Notes: generated by a model not told the origin, from the sequence alone. A DNA stretch of 64,000 nt from an uncultured Candidatus Rokubacteria bacterium (GCA_963747235.1 CAVVEU010000040.1:448001-512000), one strand, 5' to 3'; shown: positions 34,698 through 51,780, counted from the first letter of the stretch. Program-made: numbers and translations.

Positions 34698-36417
34698 CTA
34701 GACCACCAGGCGCTCGTACATGCCCTGCACGTCGGCGGCGTGGAAGCGCGCCACGTGATTGGTCGGGGGCAGCGCCTCCGCGTAGAAGAACTCGGGCAGC
34801 TCGTCGTCCTTGGCGGTGAAGCCGGCCCGCTTGTTGAACTCGTGCTCGAGCTTGAGCGTCTCGCGGCCGAGGGCCTCGAAGAAGTCCTTGGTGAGGCTCG
34901 TGCCGTGGGCCGCGTTGATCGTGTCGGTGAGCCACTCGGTGTTCGGGATTGGTCACGCTCATGCCGAAGATGCAGAGGCCGAGCGAGTCGTTGGCCGCCA
35001 CCCGCGCCTGGTGGGCCACGCTCTGCTCCACGATGGCGGGCGTCTCCATCTCGCGGGTCTTGAGCCGCGGCAGGTTGCCCGCGGTGTGATCGGCGCCCTG
35101 GGCGGTGGCCATCATGGTGATGCCGGTGGCCTCGACCACGCGGGGATCGTAGGCGCTGATCGCCTGCTTCTTGATGACCGGCACGCGCTTGACCTTGTAG
35201 TGCTCGCCCACCCGCCAGGTGCCCTGGGCCCAGATGCGGCCCTTCTCGGAGCCCTGCCGGATCTCGGCCAGGCAGTCGGCCATGAACGCGCACGTCGCCG
35301 AACGCGCCGAGCCCCGCCTCCATCAGCACCGCGATCATGGCCCCGAGTCTCGATGGTGTCCACGCCCAGGTCGTTGGCGATGTAGTTCATCTGGGCGAGA
35401 TCGTCGGGATCGGTGAGCCCGCAGTTGGTGCCGAGCAGCCCGAGGGTCTCGTACTCGACCGGCGAGACCACTTCCTTGCCGTTCGCGTCCGCGTAGATGT
35501 TGCTGCACTGGATCACGCAGCCGGGCATGCAGGCGTGGGTGTGCTCGCCCCCGCGCGAGACGTTGAGCTGGCTGATGTACTCGCCGCCCATCTTGAACTT
35601 CTCGCCCGTGGAGACGTCCACCTGCTGGCCCACGCTGAAGTTGTTGACCGGCAGGCCGCCCAGGGTGTTCTGCAGATCCGCCATGCCCATGGTGCCGACC
35701 TTCGCGTAGAAGTTGGTCACCATGGAGTCGGCCTGCAGCATCTTCGCGTAGTTCTTGATGGCCGCGTTGACCTTCTTCGGATCGGAGAACGGCGGGATCT
35801 TGTCGAGGTCCACCACGACGGCCTTGACCTTCTTCGATCCCATCACCGCGCCCACGCCACCCCGGGCCGAGAGGCGCGCCGGGCGGCCGTCCTTGTCGCT
35901 GAACGCGATGCCCGCGATCAGGCCCTGGTACTCGCCGACCGGGCCGCAGAGCCCGATCGTGACCTTCTTGCCGTACTTGGCGTGCAGCATGTTCTGGGCC
36001 TCGAAGTTGCCCTTGCCGAGATACGGCGCCGCGTCGTCGAACTCGATCGTGCCGTCCTTCTTGAAGTGGATGACCACCCAGTCGGGCGAGGCGTCCAGCA
36101 GGGTGAAGCCGGCGATCTTCTGCTGGCCGAGCCCGTAGCTGAAGCTGCCGCCCCCGTTGGCCTCCTTGATGCCGCCGGTGAGCGGGCTCTTGCAGCCCAC
36201 GCTGGTGCGATTGGCGTTGGAGAAGCTGGTCCCCGCGAAGGGCCCGGCCGAGAAGATCAGCGGATTGGCCGGCGAGAGCGGATCCACCGTCGCGGCGCCC
36301 AGCTCGAGCAGGGTCTTGGCGATGAAGTAGCGGCCGGCCTTCACGATGGCCTCGCCTTCCAGCTCGCGCTTCGTGATCGTTCCGGTCGCTCAGGCGGATG
36401 TCGTAGTAGGTGCGCAT
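34698..36417 (-). CDS. Aldehyde:ferredoxin oxidoreductase family (W/Mo-pterin, AOR/WOR); four +1 frameshifts near 36381, 35348, 35290 and 34946
   Basis: KSPLTGGIKEANGGG, ARGGVGAVMGSKKVKA, CMPGCVIQC, EYET, NDLGVDTIE, DSLGLCIF. Confidence 0.88.
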
Positions 36418-36437
36418 CGCGTGCTCCTCTTGTTCGG

Positions 36438-37286
36438 TCAGGATGATGGAGGCTTGGCCTGCGGCTGCAGCTCGGCGCTCGTCGACTGCTCGCTCGCGCC
36501 CGGCTCGACCAGCTCGATACTCTCCGCGGGCGGCATCTGGGACGGCTCCAGCGGCCGCCGGGCCCGGAAGCGGATCTGGGGCAGCCGGCCCACCGCCTGG
36601 CGGAGGGCCTGCTCCCAGCGCATGCCGATCTTGATGAGGTCGGGGTCGCCGGCGGGAAACCGGCGCAGCCGGGTGATCTCGAGCTCGTCCACCTCGTAGG
36701 CGAGCAGGTCCACCGGCGGGCCCACCGTGACGTTCGAGCGCATCGTCGAGTCGAGCGAGAGCAGCGCGTACTTCGCCGCTTCCTCGAGCGTGGTGCGCTC
36801 GAAGCGGATGCCGCGGTCGAGGATCGGCCGGCCGTACTTGGTCTCGCCGATCTGCAGATACGGCGAGTCCACGCTCGCCTGCAGCGGGTTGCCCTGCGGG
36901 TAGATGATGAAGAGCCCGGGCGACTCGCCCCGCACCTGCCCGCCCAGCACCAGGTTCACGTTGAACTTGAAGTCGTCGCGCTCGAGCGCGTCGCGGTCCA
37001 TGTCGGAGACGCGGCGCACCTGCTCGCCGATGATCCGGGCCGCGTCGTAGAGGGACGGGGCCTGCGCGAGCCCCCGGCCCTGGTCGAAGTCCCGCTGGAT
37101 CAGGGTGATGATGGACTGGGTGCAGGAGAGGCTGCCGCTGCTGAGCAGGATGAACACGCGCTCGCCCGGCTGGACGAAGGTGTGCATCTTGCGCGCGACG
37201 TTGACCTGGTCGTGGCCCGCGTTGGTCCGGGAGTCCGACGCCATCACCAGCCCGTACTTGGTCCAGATCCCGACACAGTAGGTCAT
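36438..37286 (-). CDS. Proteasome-type protease (Anbu)
   Basis: N-terminal MTYCVG (Thr1 nucleophile), SDSRTNAG, IYPQGN, QIGETKYGRPILDR, DSTMRSN. Confidence 0.93.
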   Translation of the reverse strand: MTYCVGIWTKYGLVMASDSRTNAGHDQVNVARKMHTFVQPGERVFILLSSGSLSCTQSIITLIQRDFDQGRGLAQAPSLYDAARIIGEQVRRVSDMDRDALERDDFKFNVNLVLGGQVRGESPGLFIIYPQGNPLQASVDSPYLQIGETKYGRPILDRGIRFERTTLEEAAKYALLSLDSTMRSNVTVGPPVDLLAYEVDELEITRLRRFPAGDPDLIKIGMRWEQALRQAVGRLPQIRFRARRPLEPSQMPPAESIELVEPGASEQSTSAELQPQAKPPSS

Positions 37287-37413
37287 AAACCCCTTGAGTC
37301 TCTCTATATCCGCTCGGCTCGCCGTTGGCTGCACCTCGCCCAACGGGAGTCATGTTACCAGAACCGCGCGCGATCCGATTGACCGGCACACCAGCGAGGA
37401 TTACCGTGGCCTC

Positions 37414-38229
37414 ATGCGGATCCACATCGGGCACGAGCTCGTCTTCGAGGTGCCCCGACCCACGCCGATGCTCCTCATGCTCTATGTCCGACCGGAGGTG
37501 GCGTCGGCGCTTCAACAGCCGGAGGGCATCGTGGCCGACCCGGCCGGAAATGTCGAGAGCTTCGTGGACTGGTTCGGCAACCGAGCCGCTCGGATCGTGG
37601 CGCCCGCCGGCTCGCTCCGCCTCCGCTACGACAACGTCGTGGAAGACTCGGGCCGGCCCGACCCGACCATCGAGGGGCTGCCACTCCGGCCGATGGCGGA
37701 GCTGCCCGCCGAGAGCTGGCGGTATCTGCTCGCGAGCCGGTACTGCGAGGTCGACCGCATGTCGGCGATCGCCTGGGACCTCTTCGGCTCGACACCCGAG
37801 TCCTGGGAGCGCGTGCAGGCGGTGCTGGAGTGGGTGCACAACAACGTGACCTTCGGCTACCAGTACTCCCGGCCCACCAAGACCGCCTTCGACGTCTTCA
37901 CCGAGCGGCAGGGCGTCTGCCGGGACTTCCAGCACCTGGCCATCACCTTCCTGCGCGCGCTGAACATCCCGGCCCGCTACACCACCGGGTACCTGGGCGA
38001 TATCGGCGTGCCGCCGGATCAGAACCCCATGGACTTCTCGGCCTGGCTCGAGGCCTATCTGGGCGACGGCTGGCACACGCTGGATGCCCGGCACAACAAG
38101 CCGCGCATCGGGCGCGTGCTCATGGGCCGCGGCCGGGACGCGGTGGATGTGGCGCTGACCACCTCCTTCGGCAGCACCACCTTGACGAAGTTCACCGTCT
38201 GGACCAGCCAGCTTCCCGAGAGCGCATGA
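37414..38229 (+). CDS. Transglutaminase-like protein
   Basis: SRYCEVD, GVCRDFQH, NIPARY, DFSAW, GRDAVDV; TTGACC-17-TACCGT-6 nt-ATG promoter. Confidence 0.92.
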   Translation: MRIHIGHELVFEVPRPTPMLLMLYVRPEVASALQQPEGIVADPAGNVESFVDWFGNRAARIVAPAGSLRLRYDNVVEDSGRPDPTIEGLPLRPMAELPAESWRYLLASRYCEVDRMSAIAWDLFGSTPESWERVQAVLEWVHNNVTFGYQYSRPTKTAFDVFTERQGVCRDFQHLAITFLRALNIPARYTTGYLGDIGVPPDQNPMDFSAWLEAYLGDGWHTLDARHNKPRIGRVLMGRGRDAVDVALTTSFGSTTLTKFTVWTSQLPESA

Positions 38230-41774: not shown

Positions 41775-42512
41775 ATGCGGGTCGTCTTCTGGAACATCCG
41801 CGCGGGGGGCGGCGTGCGCGCCGCCGCCATCGCGCGGCAGATCGCGGCCTGGGAGGCGGACGCGGTGGCGCTGGCCGAGTTCCGCGGCACGCCGCCCAGC
41901 GGGGAGCTGGCCCGCGACCTGGCCCGGCTCGGGCTTCCCTACCAGTGGACCACCGCGGACCCCGCGCGGCCCGGCGTCAACGGCCTCTTGCTGGCCTCAC
42001 GCTGGCCGCTGCGCCGGCTCCGGCTCCCCTGCGCGCCCAGCGAGCCGTGCCGCTGGCTGCTGGCCCGCGTCCTGGCCCCGGAGCCGCTCGCGCTCGGCGT
42101 GATGCACGTGCCCAACCGGGTCGGCGGCCGCAAGTACCCGTTCCTCGACGCGGTGCTCACCACCGCGCGGCGGCGCTGGGCCACCCCCGCCCTGCTGGTC
42201 GGCGACACCAACTCGGGCCGCATCGGCCTCGACGAGGAGGTCCCCGCGTTCAACCGGATCGAAGACGGCTGGATGCGCGAGCTCGACGAGGCGGGCTGGA
42301 CCGACGCTTACCGCCATCTGCGGGGCACCGCGCGGGCCTACACCTGGTACTCCCCGAACGGCGGGAACGGCTTCCGGATCGACCAGGCCTTCCTCAATCG
42401 CGCGCTACAACCCCGCCTGCGCCGCTTCCGCTACGACTGGGGCCGACGGTCCCGTCTCACCGGCCGCCCCGCAAGCGATCACGCGGCCATGATCCTCGAC
42501 CTGGCCGGCTGA
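41775..42512 (+). CDS. Endonuclease/exonuclease/phosphatase (ExoIII-like) family protein
   Basis: WNI, LAE, GDTN, YTWY, RID, SDH. Confidence 0.88.
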   Translation: MRVVFWNIRAGGGVRAAAIARQIAAWEADAVALAEFRGTPPSGELARDLARLGLPYQWTTADPARPGVNGLLLASRWPLRRLRLPCAPSEPCRWLLARVLAPEPLALGVMHVPNRVGGRKYPFLDAVLTTARRRWATPALLVGDTNSGRIGLDEEVPAFNRIEDGWMRELDEAGWTDAYRHLRGTARAYTWYSPNGGNGFRIDQAFLNRALQPRLRRFRYDWGRRSRLTGRPASDHAAMILDLAG

Positions 42513-42513
42513 C

Positions 42514-44028
42514 CTAGTCGCGAGGGCGGCGCACTCGCGCAGATGGGCCTGTTTCGCGCCCTCGCCCGGCGGGCGTCGCGTTGGCTTCCTGGCAGAGCCG
42601 CTTCCAGTCCGTGGCGTTCAGCGAGCAGTCGATCGTCGCGGTGTTCGCCTCCGCGACCCGGCCCGTCTTGCGGAGCAGCCGGATCTTGTGGGGCATCCAG
42701 CGCGGGGCGCCGCCGAAGGCCTTCGAGGCCTGGTCGGTCCACTCGAGCGCGGCGGGCAGGTTGCCGGCGCCCTCGTGGGCCACGATCAGGTCCTCGTACA
42801 CGTTGGGCACCGGCTCGCTCGAGGTGACCGCGCGCCGGAGCGCCTCGATGCCCTCGCGCGAGCGGCCGAGCGCGAAGGCCGCGCGGGCGAGCACCCAGTT
42901 CGGGTACGCGTCGGTGGCGGTGCGCCCGGTGATCGCGGTCCGCGCGGTGGCATAGGCCTCCTGGTTCTTGCCCTGGTCGAGCTGCTTCTTGGCCAGGAAC
43001 GCCTGCTTGTAGTTGCGCAGCACCAGGGCCACCTCGGGCCGGGCCCGCAGCGCCTTCCACGATGCGCTCGCGGGCTCCACCAGCGCGCGGGTGCCGTAGT
43101 GCCGCTCGAAGTACTCCGCGGCGTCGGTGATCCGCTCCTCGGTCTTGGGGTGGCTCACCGACACCGAGCTGAGCATCTTCTGGTACGCCATCCCCATCGC
43201 TTCGTTGACGTTCCGCTGCGAGGTCTGGCTCATGCGGTTCCAGAACGCCTCGTCGGTCTCCGCGGTGGCCTTCTCCCACGCCTGGAGCTTCTCGAGCATG
43301 GTCACCAGCGCGGGCGCCGACTGGCGGGTCTCCGCGAGCAGGTCCAGGCCGAGGAGATCCGCCTCCTTCTCCTGGCCGCGGCCCCACGCGGGCAGCACGA
43401 GCTTGTCGGTGGCGTCGGTGGCGAGCTGCACCTGCTGGATGGTCCGGGCGTCGCTCTTGGCCACCGTGCTCCGGCCGCTGAGCGCCGCCTTGGCGCCCAC
43501 GCCCATCTCGAAGAGGGCCTGCCCCTTCTTCTGCATGTCGCCGAGCACGTCGGAGGTGTGATGCTTGAGCAGCACGTGCGCGGTCTCGTGGGCGAGGATC
43601 GCCGACACCTCGTCCGCGTTCTCGAGCGTCTCGATCAGCCCCATCGCCAGGTACACGTTGCCGTCGGGGGTCGAGAACGCGACGAAGCCGGGATTGGCGA
43701 GGATCATCACCTTGCCCGGCACCCCGGTCTTGCCGACCGCCGCGATGAGGCGCGCCCGCGCCTCGTTCAGGTACTGCTCGAGGACCGCCGATCGCACGAA
43801 CCCGAGGCCGTCGCCCCGGTGCTGGGCGATGTCCTTCGCCTCGCCGATGGCCAGCGTGGACGGCTCGTAGGGACCGGGCTTGACGGTGGAGAACACGGTC
43901 ACGTTGGCGGGCTTGCCGCCCAGCCAGGTCGGCGCGGAGACACCGCTCCCCTGGCCGCCGCCCGCGCTCGTCCCCGCGCAGCCGGAGAGGACGAGCAGCG
44001 CCAGGCTCGCCGCGAGGCGACCGATCAC
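42514..44028 (-). CDS. M48 family zinc metalloprotease lipoprotein with TPR-like C-terminus
   Basis: LSGC lipobox; AFSTPDG; ILAHETAH (HExxH); QEKEADLLG; SHP. Confidence 0.9.
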   Translation of the reverse strand: MIGRLAASLALLVLSGCAGTSAGGGQGSGVSAPTWLGGKPANVTVFSTVKPGPYEPSTLAIGEAKDIAQHRGDGLGFVRSAVLEQYLNEARARLIAAVGKTGVPGKVMILANPGFVAFSTPDGNVYLAMGLIETLENADEVSAILAHETAHVLLKHHTSDVLGDMQKKGQALFEMGVGAKAALSGRSTVAKSDARTIQQVQLATDATDKLVLPAWGRGQEKEADLLGLDLLAETRQSAPALVTMLEKLQAWEKATAETDEAFWNRMSQTSQRNVNEAMGMAYQKMLSSVSVSHPKTEERITDAAEYFERHYGTRALVEPASASWKALRARPEVALVLRNYKQAFLAKKQLDQGKNQEAYATARTAITGRTATDAYPNWVLARAAFALGRSREGIEALRRAVTSSEPVPNVYEDLIVAHEGAGNLPAALEWTDQASKAFGGAPRWMPHKIRLLRKTGRVAEANTATIDCSLNATDWKRLCQEANATPAGRGRETGPSARVRRPRD

Positions 44029-44426
44029 TTGCACTCTCCGACCCCGCGGGTGGCCCCGGTCTTCGGGAGCTTGCCCGCCACCATGGCCCCGCACTCCCGG
44101 TCCCGGTCGATCACCACCGGCTTCTCGGTCTCGACCGCGAAGGCGCGGACGCAGTACTCCACGCGATCCACCTGCACCTTGAGGTAGAGCGGCGAGGCCG
44201 GATCGCGCGTGGCCATCCACGGGCCCTTGAAGTCCTTGCGGGCCACGTCCATCTGCGGCTTGCGCTTGTCCCGGTCCGGGTTGCAGTCGTAGAGCGTCAC
44301 CTTCTCGGTGCGCAGCCCCTTGACCGTCCAGGTCTCCTCGGCGGCCGCGGCGGGCCCGGCGCTCGTGCCCCCCAGGAGCAGCGCGATTCCGAGCGCCTCA
44401 CGCCACCGCATGCGTCGTCTCCCCAT
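44025..44426 (-). CDS. Small secreted 4-Cys protein ending in GATRGVGECK
   Basis: Signal peptide ending AAAA; stop overlaps the M48 start (GTGA); alternative start about 15 nt downstream (MRWRE). Confidence 0.82.
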   Translation of the reverse strand: MGRRRMRWREALGIALLLGGTSAGPAAAAEETWTVKGLRTEKVTLYDCNPDRDKRKPQMDVARKDFKGPWMATRDPASPLYLKVQVDRVEYCVRAFAVETEKPVVIDRDRECGAMVAGKLPKTGATRGVGECK

Positions 44427-46191
44427 GAGTCGTCTCCTCGTGATCCCCTCGCACGCAGAGCGTGAAGAGCCAGTCCACCGCGGCGAGCACCCCCGGCCCG
44501 ACGCCCCACTCCTCGGGCCGCGGGTGGGCCCGGCGGAGCGCGAAGTACTTCCCGGCCGCCTCGTCGGCGTGCCGCATGAGATGCCGCGCGATCTCGAAGA
44601 AGGCCACGTACGCCACGATGTTGCGCGGACCCAGGTTGATCGGCGGCAGGAAGCTCACCACCGCCGCGCCCACGAAGAGCACCGAGGTCGCCACGAAGAG
44701 CACGTCGCGCGCGACCAGCGCCTTGTAGATGAAGTAGCCGGGCAGCACCACGAGCAGCAGGCCCGCCTCGACCCCGTACCGCGTGTCGACGAGCAGGAAG
44801 AGCACGGCGGCCACCGCCAGGATGCCGACGCCGAGGAACGAGACCCGCAGGAACTGTCTAGCTGAGACCGGCTGGGGCGGGCGGGTGGCGGCCAGGTGCA
44901 GGACCGCGACCACCCCCAGCAGCAGCGGGACCAGGAGCAGCACCGCCGACAGGCTCGTCGGGAAGGCGAACGTGATCCCGATCAGCAGCAGGGCCACCCC
45001 GAGCGCGAGCCACTTGATCGCGGGACGCACCGCGGCGAGCTGTTCGAGCAGGGCCCGGGCGAACGCGGGGGGCTTGTCCACCAGCAGCAGCAGCACGACC
45101 GTGAAGAGGAGGAGCAGGCCGTTGACCACGCTCGAGAGCGAGAGCCCGTGGTGATCGGCGCGCTTGTAGGCGGCCTTGAAGGTCACCAGGTTGTCGTAGG
45201 CCATCGCGTGGAGGTAGACGCCCGGAAGATCGTCGTAGACCGGCGAGATCACCCGGTCGCCCACCATCTGGAAGTTGCCCCCGTAGAAGATCGCCTTCTT
45301 CCCGACGGCCTTCTCCACCCCGGTGTTGTGGGGCCCGAGGAGGTGGAGCACCGAGATCGTGTTCGTGTGCGGGCACGTCCGCTTGGCCGCGAGCGGGTTC
45401 TCCCGGAGGATGTTGACGAGGTGGCGCAGCGCCCCCTCGCTGGAGCAGTGCATCCAGCTCTCGTTCAGGTCCGAGGCGAGATTGCCCCAGATGATCTCCA
45501 TCGGCTGGGCGTCCTTCGGCGAGAGCCGCGGCTTGGACTCGGCGCGGGCGTACACGTCGTACATCGCGAAGGCGGGGGTCCACGTGAACCCGGAGGTCCC
45601 CCCGCCGTGCGCGTAGGTGAGCACGCCGCTCACCCCACGCTCGGCGTCCATCTGCGCGTTCACCGCCTCCGCGCACTCGAGCAGCGCCGGGTTGACCCGG
45701 ACGCCCTCGTCGCGGCCTCCGCTCGGGGCGGGCGCGGCCAGGTAGACCGGCACCTTCCCGCGCGCGTTCAGATCGCAGATCGCGCGCGTGAGCAGCGCCT
45801 GATCCTCGGGGCTGCGCGCGTCGATGAAGGCGAAGTCCACGAACACCGCGCGCGGCCCGTAGCTGGCCAGCGCCTCGAGCACCTCGGCGTGGCGCGCGTA
45901 GGAAACGGGGAAGGACTCGCCGAGCTCGGCGAGGTTCTCCTCCCGGAACAGGACCACGGTGGTGTCGCGCTGCCCGGTGGCCGGGTACGCGTACTTCACG
46001 ACGCCGTTGACGATGGCCTGCGACCACGGCGTCAGGTGGAGCGAGATGCCGTGGAACATGAAGAGCATGGCGCCGACCGCGGAAAGGAAGAGGAACTGGG
46101 CGATGGCGCGCGCCGCCGGGCCCGGCCGCCGGACGCGGACGGCAGCGGACTCGATGACCGCCGATCCGTCTCCTACGAGGGGCTGACTCAC
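44398..46191 (-). CDS. CHASE2-domain polytopic membrane protein lacking a cytoplasmic output domain
   Basis: N-terminal TM; HAEVLEAL..GPRAVFVDFAF; D.VISPV...PGVYLHAMAYDNL; about 6-7 further TM helices; AGGAGG RBS. Confidence 0.85.
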   Translation of the reverse strand: MSQPLVGDGSAVIESAAVRVRRPGPAARAIAQFLFLSAVGAMLFMFHGISLHLTPWSQAIVNGVVKYAYPATGQRDTTVVLFREENLAELGESFPVSYARHAEVLEALASYGPRAVFVDFAFIDARSPEDQALLTRAICDLNARGKVPVYLAAPAPSGGRDEGVRVNPALLECAEAVNAQMDAERGVSGVLTYAHGGGTSGFTWTPAFAMYDVYARAESKPRLSPKDAQPMEIIWGNLASDLNESWMHCSSEGALRHLVNILRENPLAAKRTCPHTNTISVLHLLGPHNTGVEKAVGKKAIFYGGNFQMVGDRVISPVYDDLPGVYLHAMAYDNLVTFKAAYKRADHHGLSLSSVVNGLLLLFTVVLLLLVDKPPAFARALLEQLAAVRPAIKWLALGVALLLIGITFAFPTSLSAVLLLVPLLLGVVAVLHLAATRPPQPVSARQFLRVSFLGVGILAVAAVLFLLVDTRYGVEAGLLLVVLPGYFIYKALVARDVLFVATSVLFVGAAVVSFLPPINLGPRNIVAYVAFFEIARHLMRHADEAAGKYFALRRAHPRPEEWGVGPGVLAAVDWLFTLCVRGDHEETTHGETTHAVA

Positions 46192-46218: not shown

Positions 46219-46289
46219 AGTCTAGACGGAAATCGGCCGCCGTCAAGTGAGCCGCGCCCCTTGCGACGCTCCCGGCCATGTGCTAGACG
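46219..46289. promoter_or_regulatory. Divergent sigma70-type promoters for the CHASE2 operon and the lipoprotein/Sel1 operon
   Basis: Minus TTGACG-16-TAGACT (46246-46219); plus TTGCGA-17-TAGACG with TG extension (46261-46289). Confidence 0.5.
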
Positions 46290-46327
46290 AGAGGGCCACC
46301 GACCCACCGATCCCCCGTGCCGGGAGA

Positions 46328-47290
46328 ATGAGCATGGACGTCACTGTCACCCCCCACCGCCGCACCGCCGTCGTGCTGCTGGCCGTCACGCTGCTGGCCG
46401 GCTGCGTGTCCCAGGACTACTACCGCGCCACCGGCCAGAGCGCCGCCGCCGGCGCCATGCAGGGCGTGCGGGAGGGGATTGCCGGCATCCAGGAGCCGCT
46501 CCGGCAGACTTTGCATGGGGCCCTCGTCGATGACCCGATGCTGAAGGACGCCGCCCGCGACATGACCCGGTCCGCGATGGAGGTCCTCGAGGCGCGCCTC
46601 GGCTCGCCCGAGATGCGCCGACAGGTGGACGCGCTCGTGGCCCAGGCGATGGCAAGCCTCCAGCGCGACAGCGACAAGACGGTCCGGGAGCTCGTCACGG
46701 CGGCGGGGGGCACGCTGGAGGCGGAGCTCCGCCGCGTGGCCACCGCCAGCATCCTGGCCGCGACCACCACCCTGCGTGACTCGCTCGAGCGGGACGTGAC
46801 CCCGGCCGCGCAGCGGCTGGCCAGCCGCATGGGGGAGGAGCTCGTGATCTCGGTGGTCAAGGGCCTGGAGGGCCCGCTCCAGAAGACCATGCTGCAGGCC
46901 GGGCGCAACATGTCGCAGGCCCTGATCAAGGGCGCGGCGGAGGGCGCCGAGGATCCGATCAACCAGGCCGGGTTCGGCGGGCTCACCAACCACGTGATGC
47001 TGCAGGCGGTGCGCGGGGCGCGGCAGGGCATGACCGAGGGCCTGCCCGACCAGGCGCAGATCGCGCTCATCTCCGGCATGGTCCTGCTCGGCGCGCTGGT
47101 GCTGGCGACCAGCGGCGGCCTCGGCTTCTTCTGGTGGCGCTACCAGCAGAGCGCCAAGACCCTGACCATCGTGGCCAAGAGCATCAACAATCATCAGTCG
47201 GGCGCGCTCAAGGACACGATCAAGAAGAGCACCCACGACAACTACGTCGGCCCCTGGTTCAGCAGCTTCCTGAAGCGCCGCGGCCTCTGA
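46328..47290 (+). CDS. Helical lipoprotein with an additional C-terminal TM helix
   Basis: LAGC lipobox; long amphipathic helical region; TM IALISGMVLLGALVLATSGGLGFFWW. Confidence 0.8.
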   Translation: MSMDVTVTPHRRTAVVLLAVTLLAGCVSQDYYRATGQSAAAGAMQGVREGIAGIQEPLRQTLHGALVDDPMLKDAARDMTRSAMEVLEARLGSPEMRRQVDALVAQAMASLQRDSDKTVRELVTAAGGTLEAELRRVATASILAATTTLRDSLERDVTPAAQRLASRMGEELVISVVKGLEGPLQKTMLQAGRNMSQALIKGAAEGAEDPINQAGFGGLTNHVMLQAVRGARQGMTEGLPDQAQIALISGMVLLGALVLATSGGLGFFWWRYQQSAKTLTIVAKSINNHQSGALKDTIKKSTHDNYVGPWFSSFLKRRGL

Positions 47291-47294
47291 TCCG

Positions 47295-48566
47295 GTGAGG
47301 CTCCCTCGCGTCGTCGCCGGCGCCCTCGCCGTCGCGATGCTGCTGTCCGTCCCGGCCCACGCCGGGCTCGCCGAGGACCTCGCGCGGTGCCAGAACACGG
47401 TGTGGCCGCGCTTCGCCGGCTGGTCGCTCTCGCGCCAGCAGGGGCCGGACAGCCCGCGGACGCCGGACGACTTCTACTGCCTGGCCCTCGGCCACTGGTC
47501 CGGCCAGGGCCCGTTCCAGGGCAAGGATCCGGTGAAGGCCGCCGGGTACGCGCGGACCGCGGCCGAGCAGAACCATCCGGGCGCGCAGGGCCTGCTGGGC
47601 TTCTTTCTGAGCAAGGGCATCGGCGTGAAGGCCGACCCGGCCGCCGCGGTCGACTGGTGGCGCAAGGGCGCGGCGCAGGGGCACGCGGACAGCCTCAACG
47701 CGCTCGCCGCCGCGTACGAGAGCGGCGAGGGCGTGGCCGCCGACCGGCAGGAGGCGGTGCGCCTCTATCGCCAGGCCGCGGAGCGCGGGAGCAAGGAGGC
47801 GCAGCAGCGGCTGGCCGCGCTGGGGCCGGCGAAGGCAGCGGCGGCCGGCCAGGCCGAGTTCGACGAGGGCACGCGTCTGTACAAGGCGGGCCAGCACGCC
47901 GCCGCGGCGAAGCAGTTCCTGCGCGCGGCCGAGCTCGGCCACGCGCGCGCGCAGCTCCAGATCGGCTACCAGTACAACTACGGCGAGGGCGTGCCGGTCA
48001 ACGCGAGCGAGGCGGTGAAATGGTACACGCGCGCGGCCGGCCAGGGCGACGCGACCGCGCAGTCCAACCTCGGCAGCATGTACGAGCACGGCGGAGGCGT
48101 GCGCGAGGACTGGGTCGAGGCCGCGCGCTGGTACGCCAGGAGCGCCGCCCAGGACCACGCGGCGGGCCAGTTCAGCCTGGGCCGCGCCTACCAGTTCGGC
48201 ATCGGCGTGCCGCAGAACCGCAAGCTCGCCATCGAGTGGTTCCAGAAGGCCTCGTTCCAGGGGCACGCGCAGGCGCGCTTCTTCGCGCAGCATCTCCTGA
48301 GCCGGGGGAACTTCATCGGCTTCCGCGACGAGCAGGAGGAGGCGCACGTGATCGCGGGGAAGCTGCGCACCGGGCTGCTGTGGGAGGAACCGGTCGGCAT
48401 GCTCTTCCACCACTCGGGCGAGCGGCTCGCCTACATCAAGAACCTGCGCTACCGCGTGGACCGCTACGAGGCCTACACGGCGTGGGTGCTGCGGCGGAAC
48501 GACTACGACGACTGCCAGCGCAGCAGCCGGTCGGGCTGCCGCGATCCGGGGCCGGCCCCGCCGTAG
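47295..48566 (+). CDS. Secreted Sel1-like repeat protein
   Basis: Signal peptide; repeated AQxxLGxxYxxGxGV...AxxWY.KAA. Confidence 0.9.
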   Translation: MRLPRVVAGALAVAMLLSVPAHAGLAEDLARCQNTVWPRFAGWSLSRQQGPDSPRTPDDFYCLALGHWSGQGPFQGKDPVKAAGYARTAAEQNHPGAQGLLGFFLSKGIGVKADPAAAVDWWRKGAAQGHADSLNALAAAYESGEGVAADRQEAVRLYRQAAERGSKEAQQRLAALGPAKAAAAGQAEFDEGTRLYKAGQHAAAAKQFLRAAELGHARAQLQIGYQYNYGEGVPVNASEAVKWYTRAAGQGDATAQSNLGSMYEHGGGVREDWVEAARWYARSAAQDHAAGQFSLGRAYQFGIGVPQNRKLAIEWFQKASFQGHAQARFFAQHLLSRGNFIGFRDEQEEAHVIAGKLRTGLLWEEPVGMLFHHSGERLAYIKNLRYRVDRYEAYTAWVLRRNDYDDCQRSSRSGCRDPGPAPP

Positions 48567-48570
48567 CGCG

Positions 48571-50743
48571 TCAGCCGGCCAGGAGCGCGTCCACCGCCCG
48601 CGGGTCCACCGGCTTGGCGAGGTGGACGTCGAAGCCGGCGTCACGCGTCTTCTGGCGATCCGCGTCGGTCCCGTAGCCGGTGAGCGCCACCAGCCGCGGC
48701 GAGCCCAGCTCGTCCATCATCCGCACCCGGCGCGCCACGTCGTAGCCGCTCATCCCGGGCAGCCCCAGGTCGAGGAACACCACGTCGGGGCGATAGCGCT
48801 CGATCTCGTCGAGCGCGCTCGGCCCGTCGTGCGCGGTGCGCACCTCGTGGCCGCGCAGGCGGAGGAAGAGGGCCAGCGAGTCGGTGGAGTCCTGGTGGTC
48901 GTCCACGACCAGGATGCGACGGGCCGGGCCCGCCGGGCCGTTCGCCGCCGCCGGCTCCGCCACCACCGCAGGCTCGGTGGCCTCCGCGGCCACGCGTGGC
49001 AGGCGAATCGTGAAGGCGCTGCCGAGCCCCGGCCCGGCGCTCGCCGCCTCCACGCGCCCCCCGTGCATCTCCACCAGCCGGCGCACGAGGGTCAGGCCGA
49101 GGCCGAGCCCGCCCTGCTTGCGCTCGAGCGAGCGGTCGGCCTGGATGAAGAGATCGAAGACGTGCGGCAGGAGCTCGGGATCGATGCCCACGCCCGCTGT
49201 CCTCGACCACGATCACGACCTCGTCCGCCTCGCTCCGCGCCCGGAGCCGGACCCGTCCGCCGTCGTCCGTGTACTTGATCGCGTTGTCCAGGAGGTTGCC
49301 GACCGCCTGGGCCAGCCGCGCCGGATCGCCGTCCACCCAGCCCGCGTCCTCGGGCACGTCCACCTCGAGCGCCTGCCCCCGGCTCTCCGCGGGCGGGCGC
49401 GCCGCCTCCACCGCCTGGGCCAGGACCTCGCGCACCGACACCGTCGCGCGCTGCAGCGTGATCTTGCCCGACGTGATGCGGGAGACGTCGAGCAGATCGT
49501 CCACGAGCCGGGTCATGAGCCCGACCTGCCGCTCGATGACGCCCGAGACCCAGCGCACCCGGTCGTCGCCCGTGCCGAGCAGGGCCAGCGTGTGGGCCGC
49601 GTTGCGGATGGGCGCGAGCGGGTTCCGCAGCTCGTGGGCCAGCATGGCGAGGAACTCGTCCTTGCGCCGGTCGGCGTCCTCCAGCGCGCGCTCCGTGCCC
49701 CGCCGCTCGGTGATGTCGCGGAAGACCAGCACCACGCCCACGATGCGGCCGCGGGTGTCGCGGATCGGCGCGCCGCTGTCGTCGATGGGCAGCTCGCGGC
49801 TGCCGTCCTTGGCGATCAGCACGGTGTGGTTGGCGAGGCCCACGATCGTGCCGAGGCGGATCACCTGCCTCACCGGGTTCTCCACCGTCTCGCGCGTCGC
49901 CTCGTTGACGATGCGGAACACCGTGTCCAGGGGCTGGCCCAGCGCCTCGCCGCCCCAGCCGGTGAGGGCCTGCGCCACCGGGTTCAGCAGGGTGATCCGC
50001 CCCTGCGCGTCGGTCACCACGACCGCGTCGCCGATGCTGGTGAGCGTGGTGCGGAAGCGCTCGCGCTCGGCGTGCAGCACGTCGGCGGCCCGCTGCCGGG
50101 CGGCCAGGTTGCGCGCGACGAGCGCGATGACCATCGTGACCAGCACGAGCCCCAGCCCGAGCCCGACGATCGTGGTCGCGAGCGCGGTGCGGGTATTGGC
50201 GCGCGAGGCCGCGTCCCGCCGGGCGAGCAGCGCGCGCTCGAGCTGCTGCATGCCGTAGATCTCGTCGCGGATCAGGTCCATCAGGCGCTTGCCCTCGCCC
50301 TGGAGCAGGTACTGCCGGGACAGCGTGAGGGCCCGGGTCTTGTCGGGCTCGGCCTGGAAGCGGTCGATCCCCCGCCGGAGCACCGCCAGCCGCTCGGCGG
50401 TGAGCTGCTCGAGCTTGAGCGCGTGCGCGGTCTGCGGGGGGTTGTCGATGGTGAGGTCGCGAAGCCGGTCGAGCTGCCCCCGGATTCGCGCCACCGCCTG
50501 CTCGTACGGGTCGAGGTAGGGGCGTTCTCCGGTCAGGAGATAGCCGCGCTGGCCGGTCTCGGCGTCCTTGAGGGTGGAGACCACCTGCTCGAGCTGGCCC
50601 AGCACCTCGTGGGTGTGGGACACCCACTGCACGCTGGTGGCGACCTCGCGGATATTGTGCAGCGTGAGGACCGCGTCCGTCAGGAGCGCGGCGACCAGCA
50701 GGACGATCGCGACGGTCTGGCCGCGCGTCAGGCTCCAGGGCAT
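48571..50743 (-). CDS. Hybrid sensor kinase CHASE3-PAS-HisKA-HATPase-REC; +1 frameshift near 49193
   Basis: DAETGQRGYLLTG (CHASE3), PAS, LAHELRNPL, NAIKYT, GLGLGL, DLGLPGMSG. Confidence 0.9.
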
Positions 50744-50765
50744 GCGAGGCGTCCCCGCGAGCGCG

Positions 50766-51780
50766 TCAGCGGCCGCCCGCGAGGGCGGGCGCCACCTCGG
50801 CCAGGAACCGCTTGAGCTGGCCGCGCTGGTCCCAGGACGTGAGCCGGAGCGCGATGTGGCCGAGGCCCGCCTCCGCGTAGTCGCGCAGCTCGGCGATGCA
50901 CTGGGCCGGGCTCCCCGCCACCGTCCAGCCCTCGACGAAGGCGGGCGAGAACTTGGACGTGTAGTAGGTGTCGAGGAACGCCTTGCTCTCCTCGAGCGCC
51001 CGCCGCGCGGTCCTCGTTGATGTTGATGTTGTGGTAGAGCGCGCTGCCGAGGGCGTCGGGGTTGCGGCCTTCCTCCCGCGCCATCTTCGCGATCCGCGCC
51101 CACTGCTCGCGGAACTGGGCCGGGCTCACCTTGTTGGTCATCCAGCCGTCGGCGTAGCGGGCCACGCGGCGGAGACCGCGCTCCACCGCCGCGTCGGAGG
51201 CGCTGGCCCCGCCCTTCCAGGTCAGGCCGGTCGGGTTGCTCGCGATCCAGATCGGGCACGGCTGCTGCGCCGGCCGGGGCTCGATCTTGACGCCCTCGAA
51301 CTGGTAGAACTCGCCCTGGTGCGAGACCTTCTCGCCGCTCCAGACCTTCCGGAGGATCTGGATGCCTTCCTCCAGGCGGCCCACGCGCTCGCTCGAGCGC
51401 ACGCCCATGACCTTGTGCTCGAGCGCCTGCGCGGCGCTCTGCTCGTCGGGCCCGCCCAGGCAGACCGCCAGCAACGCGCGACCGCCCGAGATCACGTCGA
51501 GGCTCGCCCACTGCTGCGCGAAGAGCAGCGGGTGACGGTGCACGAAGGTGGCGAGGCAGCCGACCGCGAGCTTGAGGCGCGAGGTGGCGCCGGCCAGGGC
51601 GGCGAGGAGGGCCACCGCCTCCAGGCGCGGCTTGGCCAGGAGGCTGTCGCCGACCCAGAGCGTGTCGAAGGCCCCCGACGTCTCGGCCTGCTGCGACAGC
51701 TCGATCAGATCGCGGGCCTGGATCGCGCCCAGCACCACCGCTCGATTCGCCAGGATCAGCCCGAAGGATGCGCGCGCCAT
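50766..51780 (-). CDS. LLM-class flavin-dependent oxidoreductase; +1 frameshift near 51000
   Basis: WVGDS, SLDVISGGR, PIWIA, ARYADGW; TTGACG-17-TAAATT promoter and GGAGG RBS. Confidence 0.88.

Follow-up and report, generated by a model that had tools for sequence, protein, structure and literature searches.

What can be accomplished by a CHASE2 receptor that carries no output domain of its own and is encoded together with a small secreted protein and a metalloprotease? This question is raised by the locus 42514-46191, on the minus strand of a 64,000-nucleotide stretch of DNA (here called the window) from an uncultured Candidatus Rokubacteria bacterium (GCA_963747235.1, CAVVEU010000040.1:448001-512000), whose G+C content is about 71% and whose best protein matches bear the names Methylomirabilota or Rokuibacteriota. 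Three genes are arranged there in tandem, in the order CHASE2 receptor, small protein and M48 protease (Table 1), and the trio represents a strongly conserved three-gene cell-envelope module, in which two known families are found in an unusual output-less combination with a family of small proteins for which Pfam and NCBIfam lack a model. An initial annotation, made from the sequence alone, had put the system forward as a candidate undescribed signalling system; in agreement with this, no description of a CHASE2-M48 pairing or of such a trio was found in the searchable literature (subscription journals, supplements and the founding CHASE2 paper excluded), where CHASE2 and metalloproteases are co-mentioned only as separate topics. 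What is sensed by CHASE2 domains is largely unknown, and the factors that it recognises are stated as not known in the accessible part of a 2016 report (PMC5192318). The trio offers a minimal genetic setting with one candidate protein partner, one protease and no output domain, and it is present in easily handled bacteria such as the fluorescent pseudomonads.

The three overlapping genes of the initial annotation were confirmed on the minus strand. The ATG of the small-protein gene lies inside the CHASE2 gene (stop 44398-44400), giving an overlap of 29 nucleotides (nt), and the GTG of the M48 gene (44028-44026) has TG in common with the TGA that ends the small-protein gene (44027-44025), giving an overlap of 4 nt; this GTG is the most likely start of the 504-residue protease. 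GGAGG- or GAGGAG-like motifs were observed 5-7 nt upstream of all three starts, and the G+C content at third codon positions (GC3) reaches 0.87-0.95 in the coding frames of all three, by which the open reading frames (ORFs) are taken as real genes. The trio is bordered by one divergent gene (46247-47290, plus strand) and one convergent gene (41775-42512, plus strand) and thus forms a discrete unit. As to the claim that the genes stand behind one promoter, the consensus scan returned one promoter-like site against 0.1 expected in shuffles, a pattern match that does not by itself show a single promoter for the trio. No terminator-like site was found inside the unit by a pattern scan.

Conservation of the trio had been set beforehand as one test of the initial annotation, and it was observed throughout the loci compared. 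A genome scan with two conserved CHASE2 peptides, covering one genome per species, returned 153 stretches, 108 of which encode a relative, and the best 80 of these 108 (L001-L080) were analysed. By tblastn, 76 of the 80 loci have an M48 gene downstream in the same orientation, and the four without a match (L016, L020, L053 and L077) are all cut at a contig edge. The window's small protein, used as a query, found counterparts only in the 15 closest loci, and a profile was therefore built from the last 105 residues of the intervening ORF in 65 loci and used to search every six-frame ORF of the window and of the 80 loci. With this profile, the small-protein family was placed directly downstream of CHASE2 on the same strand in 78 loci, the two others being cut at the contig end, and all 13 of the 13 loci that had not seeded the profile were recovered. 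Profile-profile comparison of six lineage groups linked the window's group to the Burkholderiales/Rhodocyclales group with 99.7% probability and the latter to the remaining groups with 91-98%; the window's group compared directly with the Pseudomonas group gave 6%, which is not significant, so that small-protein homology there rests on a chain of links. Judged from these profiles, the small proteins of the six groups are one family.

Close packing is likewise retained among the loci. The distance from the CHASE2 stop to the mature small domain has a median of 70 nt (78 loci), and that from the small-gene stop to the lipobox Cys of the M48 protein has a median of 60 nt (61 loci), indicating that the signal peptides begin at or before the preceding stop codon. 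That the three genes stand side by side through common ancestry alone, without a shared function, is highly improbable, since order and packing are kept at a mean protein identity of 22-27%, under several phylum labels, on plasmids and amid changing flanks; nothing specific speaks for such an account, the gene order being shared among related genomes in the case of the close relatives L001-L010. The pairwise distances of the three proteins are also correlated (Spearman 0.41-0.52, 22 loci), which was rejected as evidence because any genes of the same genomes would correlate.

The hosts of the trio include Pseudomonas, Xanthomonas, Paraburkholderia, Dechloromonas and Methylomirabilota. By record title, the 80 loci comprise 39 Gammaproteobacteria (28 of them Pseudomonas), 19 Betaproteobacteria, 5 Alphaproteobacteria and 10 Methylomirabilota/Rokuibacteriota, together with single loci labelled Chlamydiota, Myxococcota, Bacteroidota, Verrucomicrobiota, Dormiibacterota and Nitrososphaerota, and one without a label; several of the single-label loci, being metagenome bins, may be mis-binned. 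In L003, L006 and L009, whose labels read Nitrosotalea, Verrucomicrobiia and Dormiibacterota, the trio has 52-63% identity and is accompanied by Methylomirabilota-type neighbours as in the window, with a gene for a 347-residue protein in all three and an endonuclease/exonuclease/phosphatase (EEP) gene in L003 and L006; these three loci are probably mis-binned contigs and not transfers. A reciprocal search of plasmids with a Pseudomonas M48 protein gave 19 records, 11 of which are Acinetobacter partial matches only, and CHASE2 lies upstream on the same strand in all five of the top non-Acinetobacter records examined (Photobacterium, Paroceanicella, Novosphingobium, Tistrella and Caballeronia). 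The small-protein profile matches three of these five, and the other two encode at that place a 'hypothetical protein' of 107-124 amino acids that has a signal peptide and ends in a loop between two Cys. In RefSeq, the three products are named 'CHASE2 domain-containing protein', 'hypothetical protein' and 'M48 family metalloprotease/metallopeptidase'. At the DNA level, 5,426 complete Escherichia coli genomes contained no match to the Pantoea trio.

The receptor was recognised by one domain only. The Pfam family PF05226 matches it with E 7.7e-14 and 52.3 bits against a cut-off of 26.3, and no second Pfam or NCBIfam family was found on it, in accordance with the initial annotation, which had seen no catalytic output. 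A hydropathy scan placed one transmembrane segment ahead of the sensor (29-47) and six behind it (353 to 515), the last being followed by a tail of about 80 residues. The helices of an AlphaFold2 (AF2) model built with 60 relatives (mean predicted local distance difference test score, pLDDT, 81.5; predicted template-modelling score 0.82) agree with the hydropathy, and the model adds a long helix at 525-555 and then a short tail, so the early picture of a CHASE2 domain followed by about six to seven helices and a short tail stands. The sensor displays an alpha/beta fold in the model; C249 and C273 are conserved in at least 90% of the 60 relatives, and D119, D312, H328 and N334 are conserved across the 60 sequences.

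Differential patterns were observed for the membrane part of the receptors. A typical family member has 445-550 residues and only about three helices behind the sensor. The extra membrane helices and the motif PPINLGPRNIV, which precedes the last helix and is invariant in 10 of the 10 members of the window's clade, are confined to that clade. Because of this restriction, the extra helices are not the family's general output route, and an exit of the signal by way of the extra membrane domain, as proposed in the initial annotation, fails as an explanation for the family. Many of the shorter relatives (L013-L080) are closed by P-x-N-[WI]-L-G plus a hydrophobic helix, as judged by eye, and the window counterpart of this element is PPINLGPRNIVAYVAFFEIARHL, at 44527-44650; if the PPINLGPRNIVAYVAFFEIARHL helix spans the membrane, the window protein has eight helices and a cytoplasmic C-terminus. 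As a related C-terminal element recurs in the shorter relatives, the membrane part seems to matter. The CHASE2 proteins of L017 and L018 (Azonexus and Dechloromonas bins; 609-621 residues) carry an extension of another kind at the C-terminus, whose three additional hydrophobic segments are not related to those of the window, and enlargement of the membrane part seems to have occurred at least twice.

The possibility that the window's receptor is a truncated form of output-bearing homologues, which the initial annotation had named as a refuting condition, was also assessed and was not borne out. The best 120 of 257 CHASE2 homologues have 399-638 residues and PF05226 only, CHASE2 is the sole Pfam family in 20 of 20 receptors from diverse loci and in 3 of 3 from plasmids, and no fused or longer relatives were found among proteins of 1046-2985 residues, the last being weak evidence. 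The receptor is not truncated, as no relative examined carries an output domain. Foldseek with the whole model gave no PDB match at E ≤0.001, the top matches being unrelated enzymes, and a CHASE2 profile search of PDB sequences gave none at E ≤0.1, so that a solved CHASE2 relative is lacking; when the ESM Atlas was searched with the membrane region at the C-terminus, the best score was 0.86, below the level that counts as more than a lead. With canonical CHASE2 receptors the protein shares the above-cut-off periplasmic sensor, the one helix before it and the at least three helices after it. It differs in that a cyclase, histidine kinase or GGDEF/EAL output is found there and none in the window protein or the relatives examined, and in that the window's clade adds membrane helices and a conserved tail of about 80 residues.

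The second component begins with a signal-peptide-like N-terminus of about 28 residues. No Pfam or NCBIfam family was found for the window's small protein, and none of 23 relatives reaches a curated Pfam cut-off, a match to SH3_3 (PF08239) being absent among them. Its description as Cys-rich was overstated, as the mature protein has four Cys in about 105 residues, only the last two of which are conserved in the family. Across 65 aligned mature sequences, C84, G100 and C104, all in the tail, are at least 90% conserved and the body is poorly conserved; the tail consensus is roughly C-G-A-V-V ... A-A-T-R-G-[LV]-G-E-[GE]-C. When the small protein is folded alone by AF2, residues 1-80 form a seven-stranded beta domain (pLDDT 80-93) and the tail is disordered (pLDDT about 40). 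Conservation is thus concentrated in a stretch that is disordered in the solo fold, which is typical of a binding epitope.

The fold of the body was compared with known structures. The Foldseek search of the PDB gave no match at E ≤0.001, and its best matches are the SH3b-bearing TagH, NlpC/P60, LytB and endolysin, at the weak level of E 0.061-1 and template-modelling scores of 0.38-0.45; in the ESM Atlas, 29 unnamed clusters and one SH3_3 cluster at 0.91 were obtained. With Foldseek E values of 0.06-1 and a single SH3_3 cluster, the SH3b-like character of the body is kept as a lead and not as membership. The family profile recovered 736 representative clusters at E ≤0.001, and 166 at ≤1e-10, from 1.84 billion representatives, and this family is now annotated merely as 'hypothetical protein'. 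From the listed profile matches, 148 were fetched, 134 of at most 200 residues and 14 long proteins. At least two Cys occur in the last 45 residues of 125 of the 134 short proteins; among these 125, the last Cys stands 0-4 residues from the C-terminus in 119, and the loop measures 18-23 residues in 117. Exactly two Cys past residue 25 were counted in 100 of the 134. The 14 long proteins (P0194, P0195, P0201, P0208 and 10 more; 547-2011 residues) match the middle of the profile only, in 4-18 stretches, and four that were inspected resemble, by eye, the tandem SH3b-type repeat proteins among wall hydrolases, two of them with glucosaminidase-like N-termini.

The third component is an M48 peptidase (PF01435; E 8.9e-22, 78.2 bits against a cut-off of 20.3). 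H147, E148, H151, E220 and R299 show no variation among the 44 aligned sequences and H293 is conserved in at least 90%, so that the HExxH and downstream Glu of the initial annotation hold and the protease, on its residues, appears active. The TPR-like helices claimed with them were recovered less directly: TPR_16 scores 24.8 bits on the window protein, below its cut-off of 32.7, and the M48 family profile matches designed TPR/PPR proteins over positions 313-434 (E 1e-13 to 2e-3). A lipobox-like motif stands ahead of the mature part in 54 of 70 family ORFs, and the lipoprotein signal resembles those of LoiP and YcaL. At the C-terminus, two Cys about 10 residues apart (CSLNATDWKRLC; 42514-42600) were observed, the same pair being present in the family consensus, and the module could thereby contain another terminal disulfide loop.

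Among solved structures, the nearest to the protease are BepA (YfgC), a periplasmic M48 protease of E. coli with a TPR domain, at E 1.1e-9 with the single sequence and 7e-20 with the profile, and a Geobacter M48 peptidase (E 3.9e-25, profile). BepA, the best solved match, shares the M48 catalytic motifs and perhaps the C-terminal TPR-like domain, whereas the trio protease lies far below the equivalog cut-offs, with 45.8 bits against 570 for BepA (NCBIfam NF052400) and 38.2 against 365 for LoiP. On these scores it is neither of the two, and it is, as far as profiles tell, a separate M48-TPR branch. To our knowledge, BepA is not encoded beside a CHASE2 protein or a trio-type small protein. An account in which the trio performs housekeeping maintenance of the envelope or cell wall, with an M48 protease that acts, like BepA or the M48 lipoproteins LoiP and YcaL, on envelope proteins or cell-wall enzymes, an SH3b-like protein that binds the wall or inhibits in the periplasm by means of its disulfide loop, and CHASE2 mainly as a scaffold, appears unlikely. 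The closest solved relatives are BepA and the Geobacter peptidase, with an M48 plus TPR layout that seems to be shared, the beta domain is similar to SH3b modules of wall hydrolases, and the neighbours of the trio are identical in 19 Pseudomonas loci, as for a core gene set, all of which would suit such maintenance, as would the defence search: PADLOC-DB 2.0 gave no family for the three trio proteins and the upstream 347-residue protein. The distance from the BepA and LoiP equivalogs speaks against it, however, and so do the four conserved sensor residues (D119, D312, H328 and N334, in 60 sequences), as a scaffold needs no conserved CHASE2 sensor fold; moreover, no peptidoglycan or beta-barrel assembly machinery (BAM) genes linked to the trio were found among the window neighbours and in the flank scans. 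An anti-phage defence reading was rejected, there being no PADLOC match.

The answer tentatively preferred here, although held at less than even probability, is regulated periplasmic proteolysis, with the small protein as a tail-recognised adaptor or substrate and CHASE2 setting the cutting by M48. The working parts would all face the periplasm, namely an inner-membrane CHASE2 sensor, the SH3b-like protein and the M48-TPR protease. The small protein would serve as dedicated adaptor or substrate, its tail would be recognised by the CHASE2 domain, by the protease or by both, and the state of CHASE2 would decide whether the small protein, and possibly further envelope proteins, are cleaved. On this model the primary output would therefore lie outside the cytoplasm, as extracytoplasmic proteolysis instead of a second messenger or phosphorylation. 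Co-occurrence, packing, output-less receptors, intact catalytic residues and the conserved tail are in line with it, as are the export signals or periplasmic topology found in all three proteins; mutual contact, the binding pairs, the cleaved target and the CHASE2 input are what we infer. The scheme resembles, as a working analogy, CpxP-DegP-CpxA and the MucE/outer-membrane-protein-tail-DegS/AlgW systems, in which a protease and a small protein, both periplasmic, work with a membrane sensor and a C-terminal peptide acts as the recognition signal; the families are unrelated, and a kinase or an anti-sigma factor stands at the end of those systems, whereas no such linked output is seen here. Abstracts describe M48 proteases such as BepA as kept autoinhibited by a plug and in need of activation, and control by a sensor and adaptor, if true, would be a new way of regulating such proteases.

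Several observations weigh against periplasmic proteolysis as the primary output. The multi-helix bundle is retained family-wide, although one anchor helix would suffice for periplasmic regulation, an apparent C-terminal motif is shared (by eye), and the bundle is expanded with invariant residues in the window's clade, which argues that the membrane part itself acts, for example by a sideways signal to an unlinked partner. CHASE2 feeds cytoplasmic outputs in the characterised cases, as far as the available portions of PMC5192318 and PMC13001267 go. The SH3b assignment is weak, with a best Foldseek E of 0.061 and no Pfam match, the lipobox calls come from a regular expression and not from a trained predictor, and the co-occurrence figures, the loci having been picked by CHASE2-subfamily motifs, describe that subfamily and not CHASE2 in general.

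The first of these observations would fit inward signalling, the reading of the initial annotation, in which M48 matures or presents the small protein as the CHASE2 ligand and the membrane helices or the short cytoplasmic tail pass the signal to an unlinked kinase, cyclase or other partner; this account is judged somewhat unlikely. Known CHASE2 sensors do signal into the cytoplasm, and the set CyaD1/CyaD2/CyaK of Sinorhizobium meliloti consists of CHASE2 cyclases that answer a plant protein signal, according to the accessible part of a 2026 report (PMC13001267). CHASE2 kinases, as described in the available portion of PMC5192318, are often paired with a secreted FecR/LysM accessory protein; the conserved small-protein tail could serve as a ligand, and the bundle and its apparent C-terminal motif are retained, being invariant in the window's clade. 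These points have to be set against the minimal cytoplasmic parts of most members (445-550 residues), the limitation of the extra membrane domain to one clade, and the lack of any candidate partner gene conserved beside the trio in the lineages examined. If the signal nevertheless runs inward, the trio would be an example of a sensor handing its signal to a non-fused partner.

The search for a partner gene was made by all-against-all clustering of the six-frame ORFs of the 80 loci. The CHASE2 family was recovered in all 80 and the M48 family in 78, and no family outside the trio was found to be common to all 80; the next-largest cluster covers 42 loci (167 ORFs) and is presumably no partner of the trio, and the remaining clusters track genus. 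When flanking genes from seven genera (Pseudomonas, Dechloromonas, Xanthomonas, Novispirillum, Pusillimonas, Azonexus and Castellaniella) were scanned with Pfam, their functions proved to be unrelated, such as a LysR regulator, an EamA transporter, a TonB receptor, phosphoenolpyruvate carboxylase, an AraC regulator, an autotransporter and SRP54, and thus no conserved cytoplasmic partner is visible beside the trio in these lineages.

Known CHASE2 neighbourhoods give likenesses to the trio without coinciding with it. Burkholderia and relatives have an operon of a response regulator, a FecR-LysM protein and a CHASE2 histidine kinase, in the accessible part of PMC5192318, and there too a CHASE2 protein adjoins an accessory protein that is secreted and probably encounters the sensor on the periplasmic side. 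The trio differs from the operon as given in that part in that its accessory has no FecR or LysM, that a kinase and a response regulator are missing, and that it always includes a protease gene; FecR, LysM, kinase and response regulator were likewise absent from the relatives' flanks in the Pfam scans. In cyanobacteria, CHASE2 is tied to a protease in a wide sense: CHASE2 lies near DUF928 and WD40 genes in one strain of Nostoc punctiforme (PMC5587647), and metacaspase-CHASE2 fusions are known (PMC3501461, PMC8195603), each from the portions of these sources that were available. According to these portions, the caspase-like domain of the fusions is cytoplasmic and part of the same protein, whereas the trio protease is a separate exported metalloprotease. 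The initial annotation had drawn a parallel with cyanobacterial CHASE2/DUF928/CHAT-protease clusters; DUF928, CHAT and caspase domains are absent from the trio, and neither DUF928 nor CHAT was found among the window neighbours.

Within regulated periplasmic proteolysis, a more specific variant was also considered, in which CHASE2 controls M48 by a periplasm-only switch through an adaptor with a disulfide-closed loop as latch and the membrane domain of the window's clade adds a function; it is rather improbable in this detailed form. The latch loop would be either a pseudo-substrate or an activator, neither the input of the signal nor the enzymatic output would be cytoplasmic, and the enlarged membrane domain of the window's clade would act, for instance, as a channel or as a docking site for a partner. 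Complexes were predicted for the CHASE2 periplasmic domain (50-352) and the M48 protein (18-504) with the mature small protein as the partner; three runs gave 0.58, 0.43 and 0.64, controls with the partner replaced gave 0.00 and 0.00, and the control with M48 replaced by an unrelated protein gave 0.56, by which the mark was missed; these values were used neither for nor against any interaction.

Table 1. Positions of the trio and of its parts in the window (aa, amino acids)
Feature	Position	Strand	Details
CHASE2-only membrane protein, 597 aa	44398-46191	-	GTG start, GGAGG 5 nt upstream
Small secreted protein, 133 aa	44025-44426	-	ATG start at 44426
M48 zinc metalloprotease lipoprotein, TPR-like C-terminal domain, 504 aa	42514-44028	-	GTG start
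Promoter-like site TTGACG-16 nt-TAGACT	46219-46246	-	upstream of CHASE2 gene; pattern match only
Periplasmic CHASE2 sensor domain	45082-46026	-	residues 56-370, first following helix included; PF05226
Multi-helix membrane domain	44527-45135	-	residues ~353-555; six hydropathy peaks, AF2 helices
SH3b-like beta domain of small protein (lead)	44103-44342	-	mature residues 1-80; AF2
Conserved C-terminal tail of small protein	44028-44102	-	loop between two Cys, ends ...TRGVGEC-K
Lipoprotein signal peptide of M48, lipobox L-S-G-C (Cys17)	43978-44028	-	LLVLSGC read from sequence
M48 catalytic domain	43117-43770	-	residues 87-304; HETAH 147-151 at 43576-43590, E220, H293-P-x4-R299
TPR-like helical repeat domain of M48	42559-43041	-	residues ~330-490, C-terminal third

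The remaining neighbours of the trio in the window comprise an EEP-family protein, the 347-residue protein, a Sel1-repeat protein, and transport and metabolic genes. In the region 35115-38229, an aldehyde ferredoxin oxidoreductase ORF of 410 residues has the N domain, with the C domains represented only in part, and a weak proteasome-family match (36441-37343, minus strand) overlaps the start of a transglutaminase-like gene (37294-38229) on the opposite strand; the gene calls there are uncertain. On the minus strand at 48571-51511, a hybrid histidine kinase is broken by a frame change near 49190: the ORF 48641-51511 contains CHASE3, PAS, HisKA and the first 48 positions of HATPase_c, and the ORF 48571-49191 contains HATPase_c positions 48-109 and the receiver domain, the split being either a frameshifted pseudogene or an assembly error. 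Divergent from the trio, at 46247-48566 on the plus strand, the 347-residue protein (with a weak DUF445 match only) is followed by the Sel1-repeat protein. The 347-residue gene holds its position in 10 of the closest loci (L001-L004, L006-L010 and L016) and not in L011-L015, and it looks like lineage-level synteny, outside the core module.

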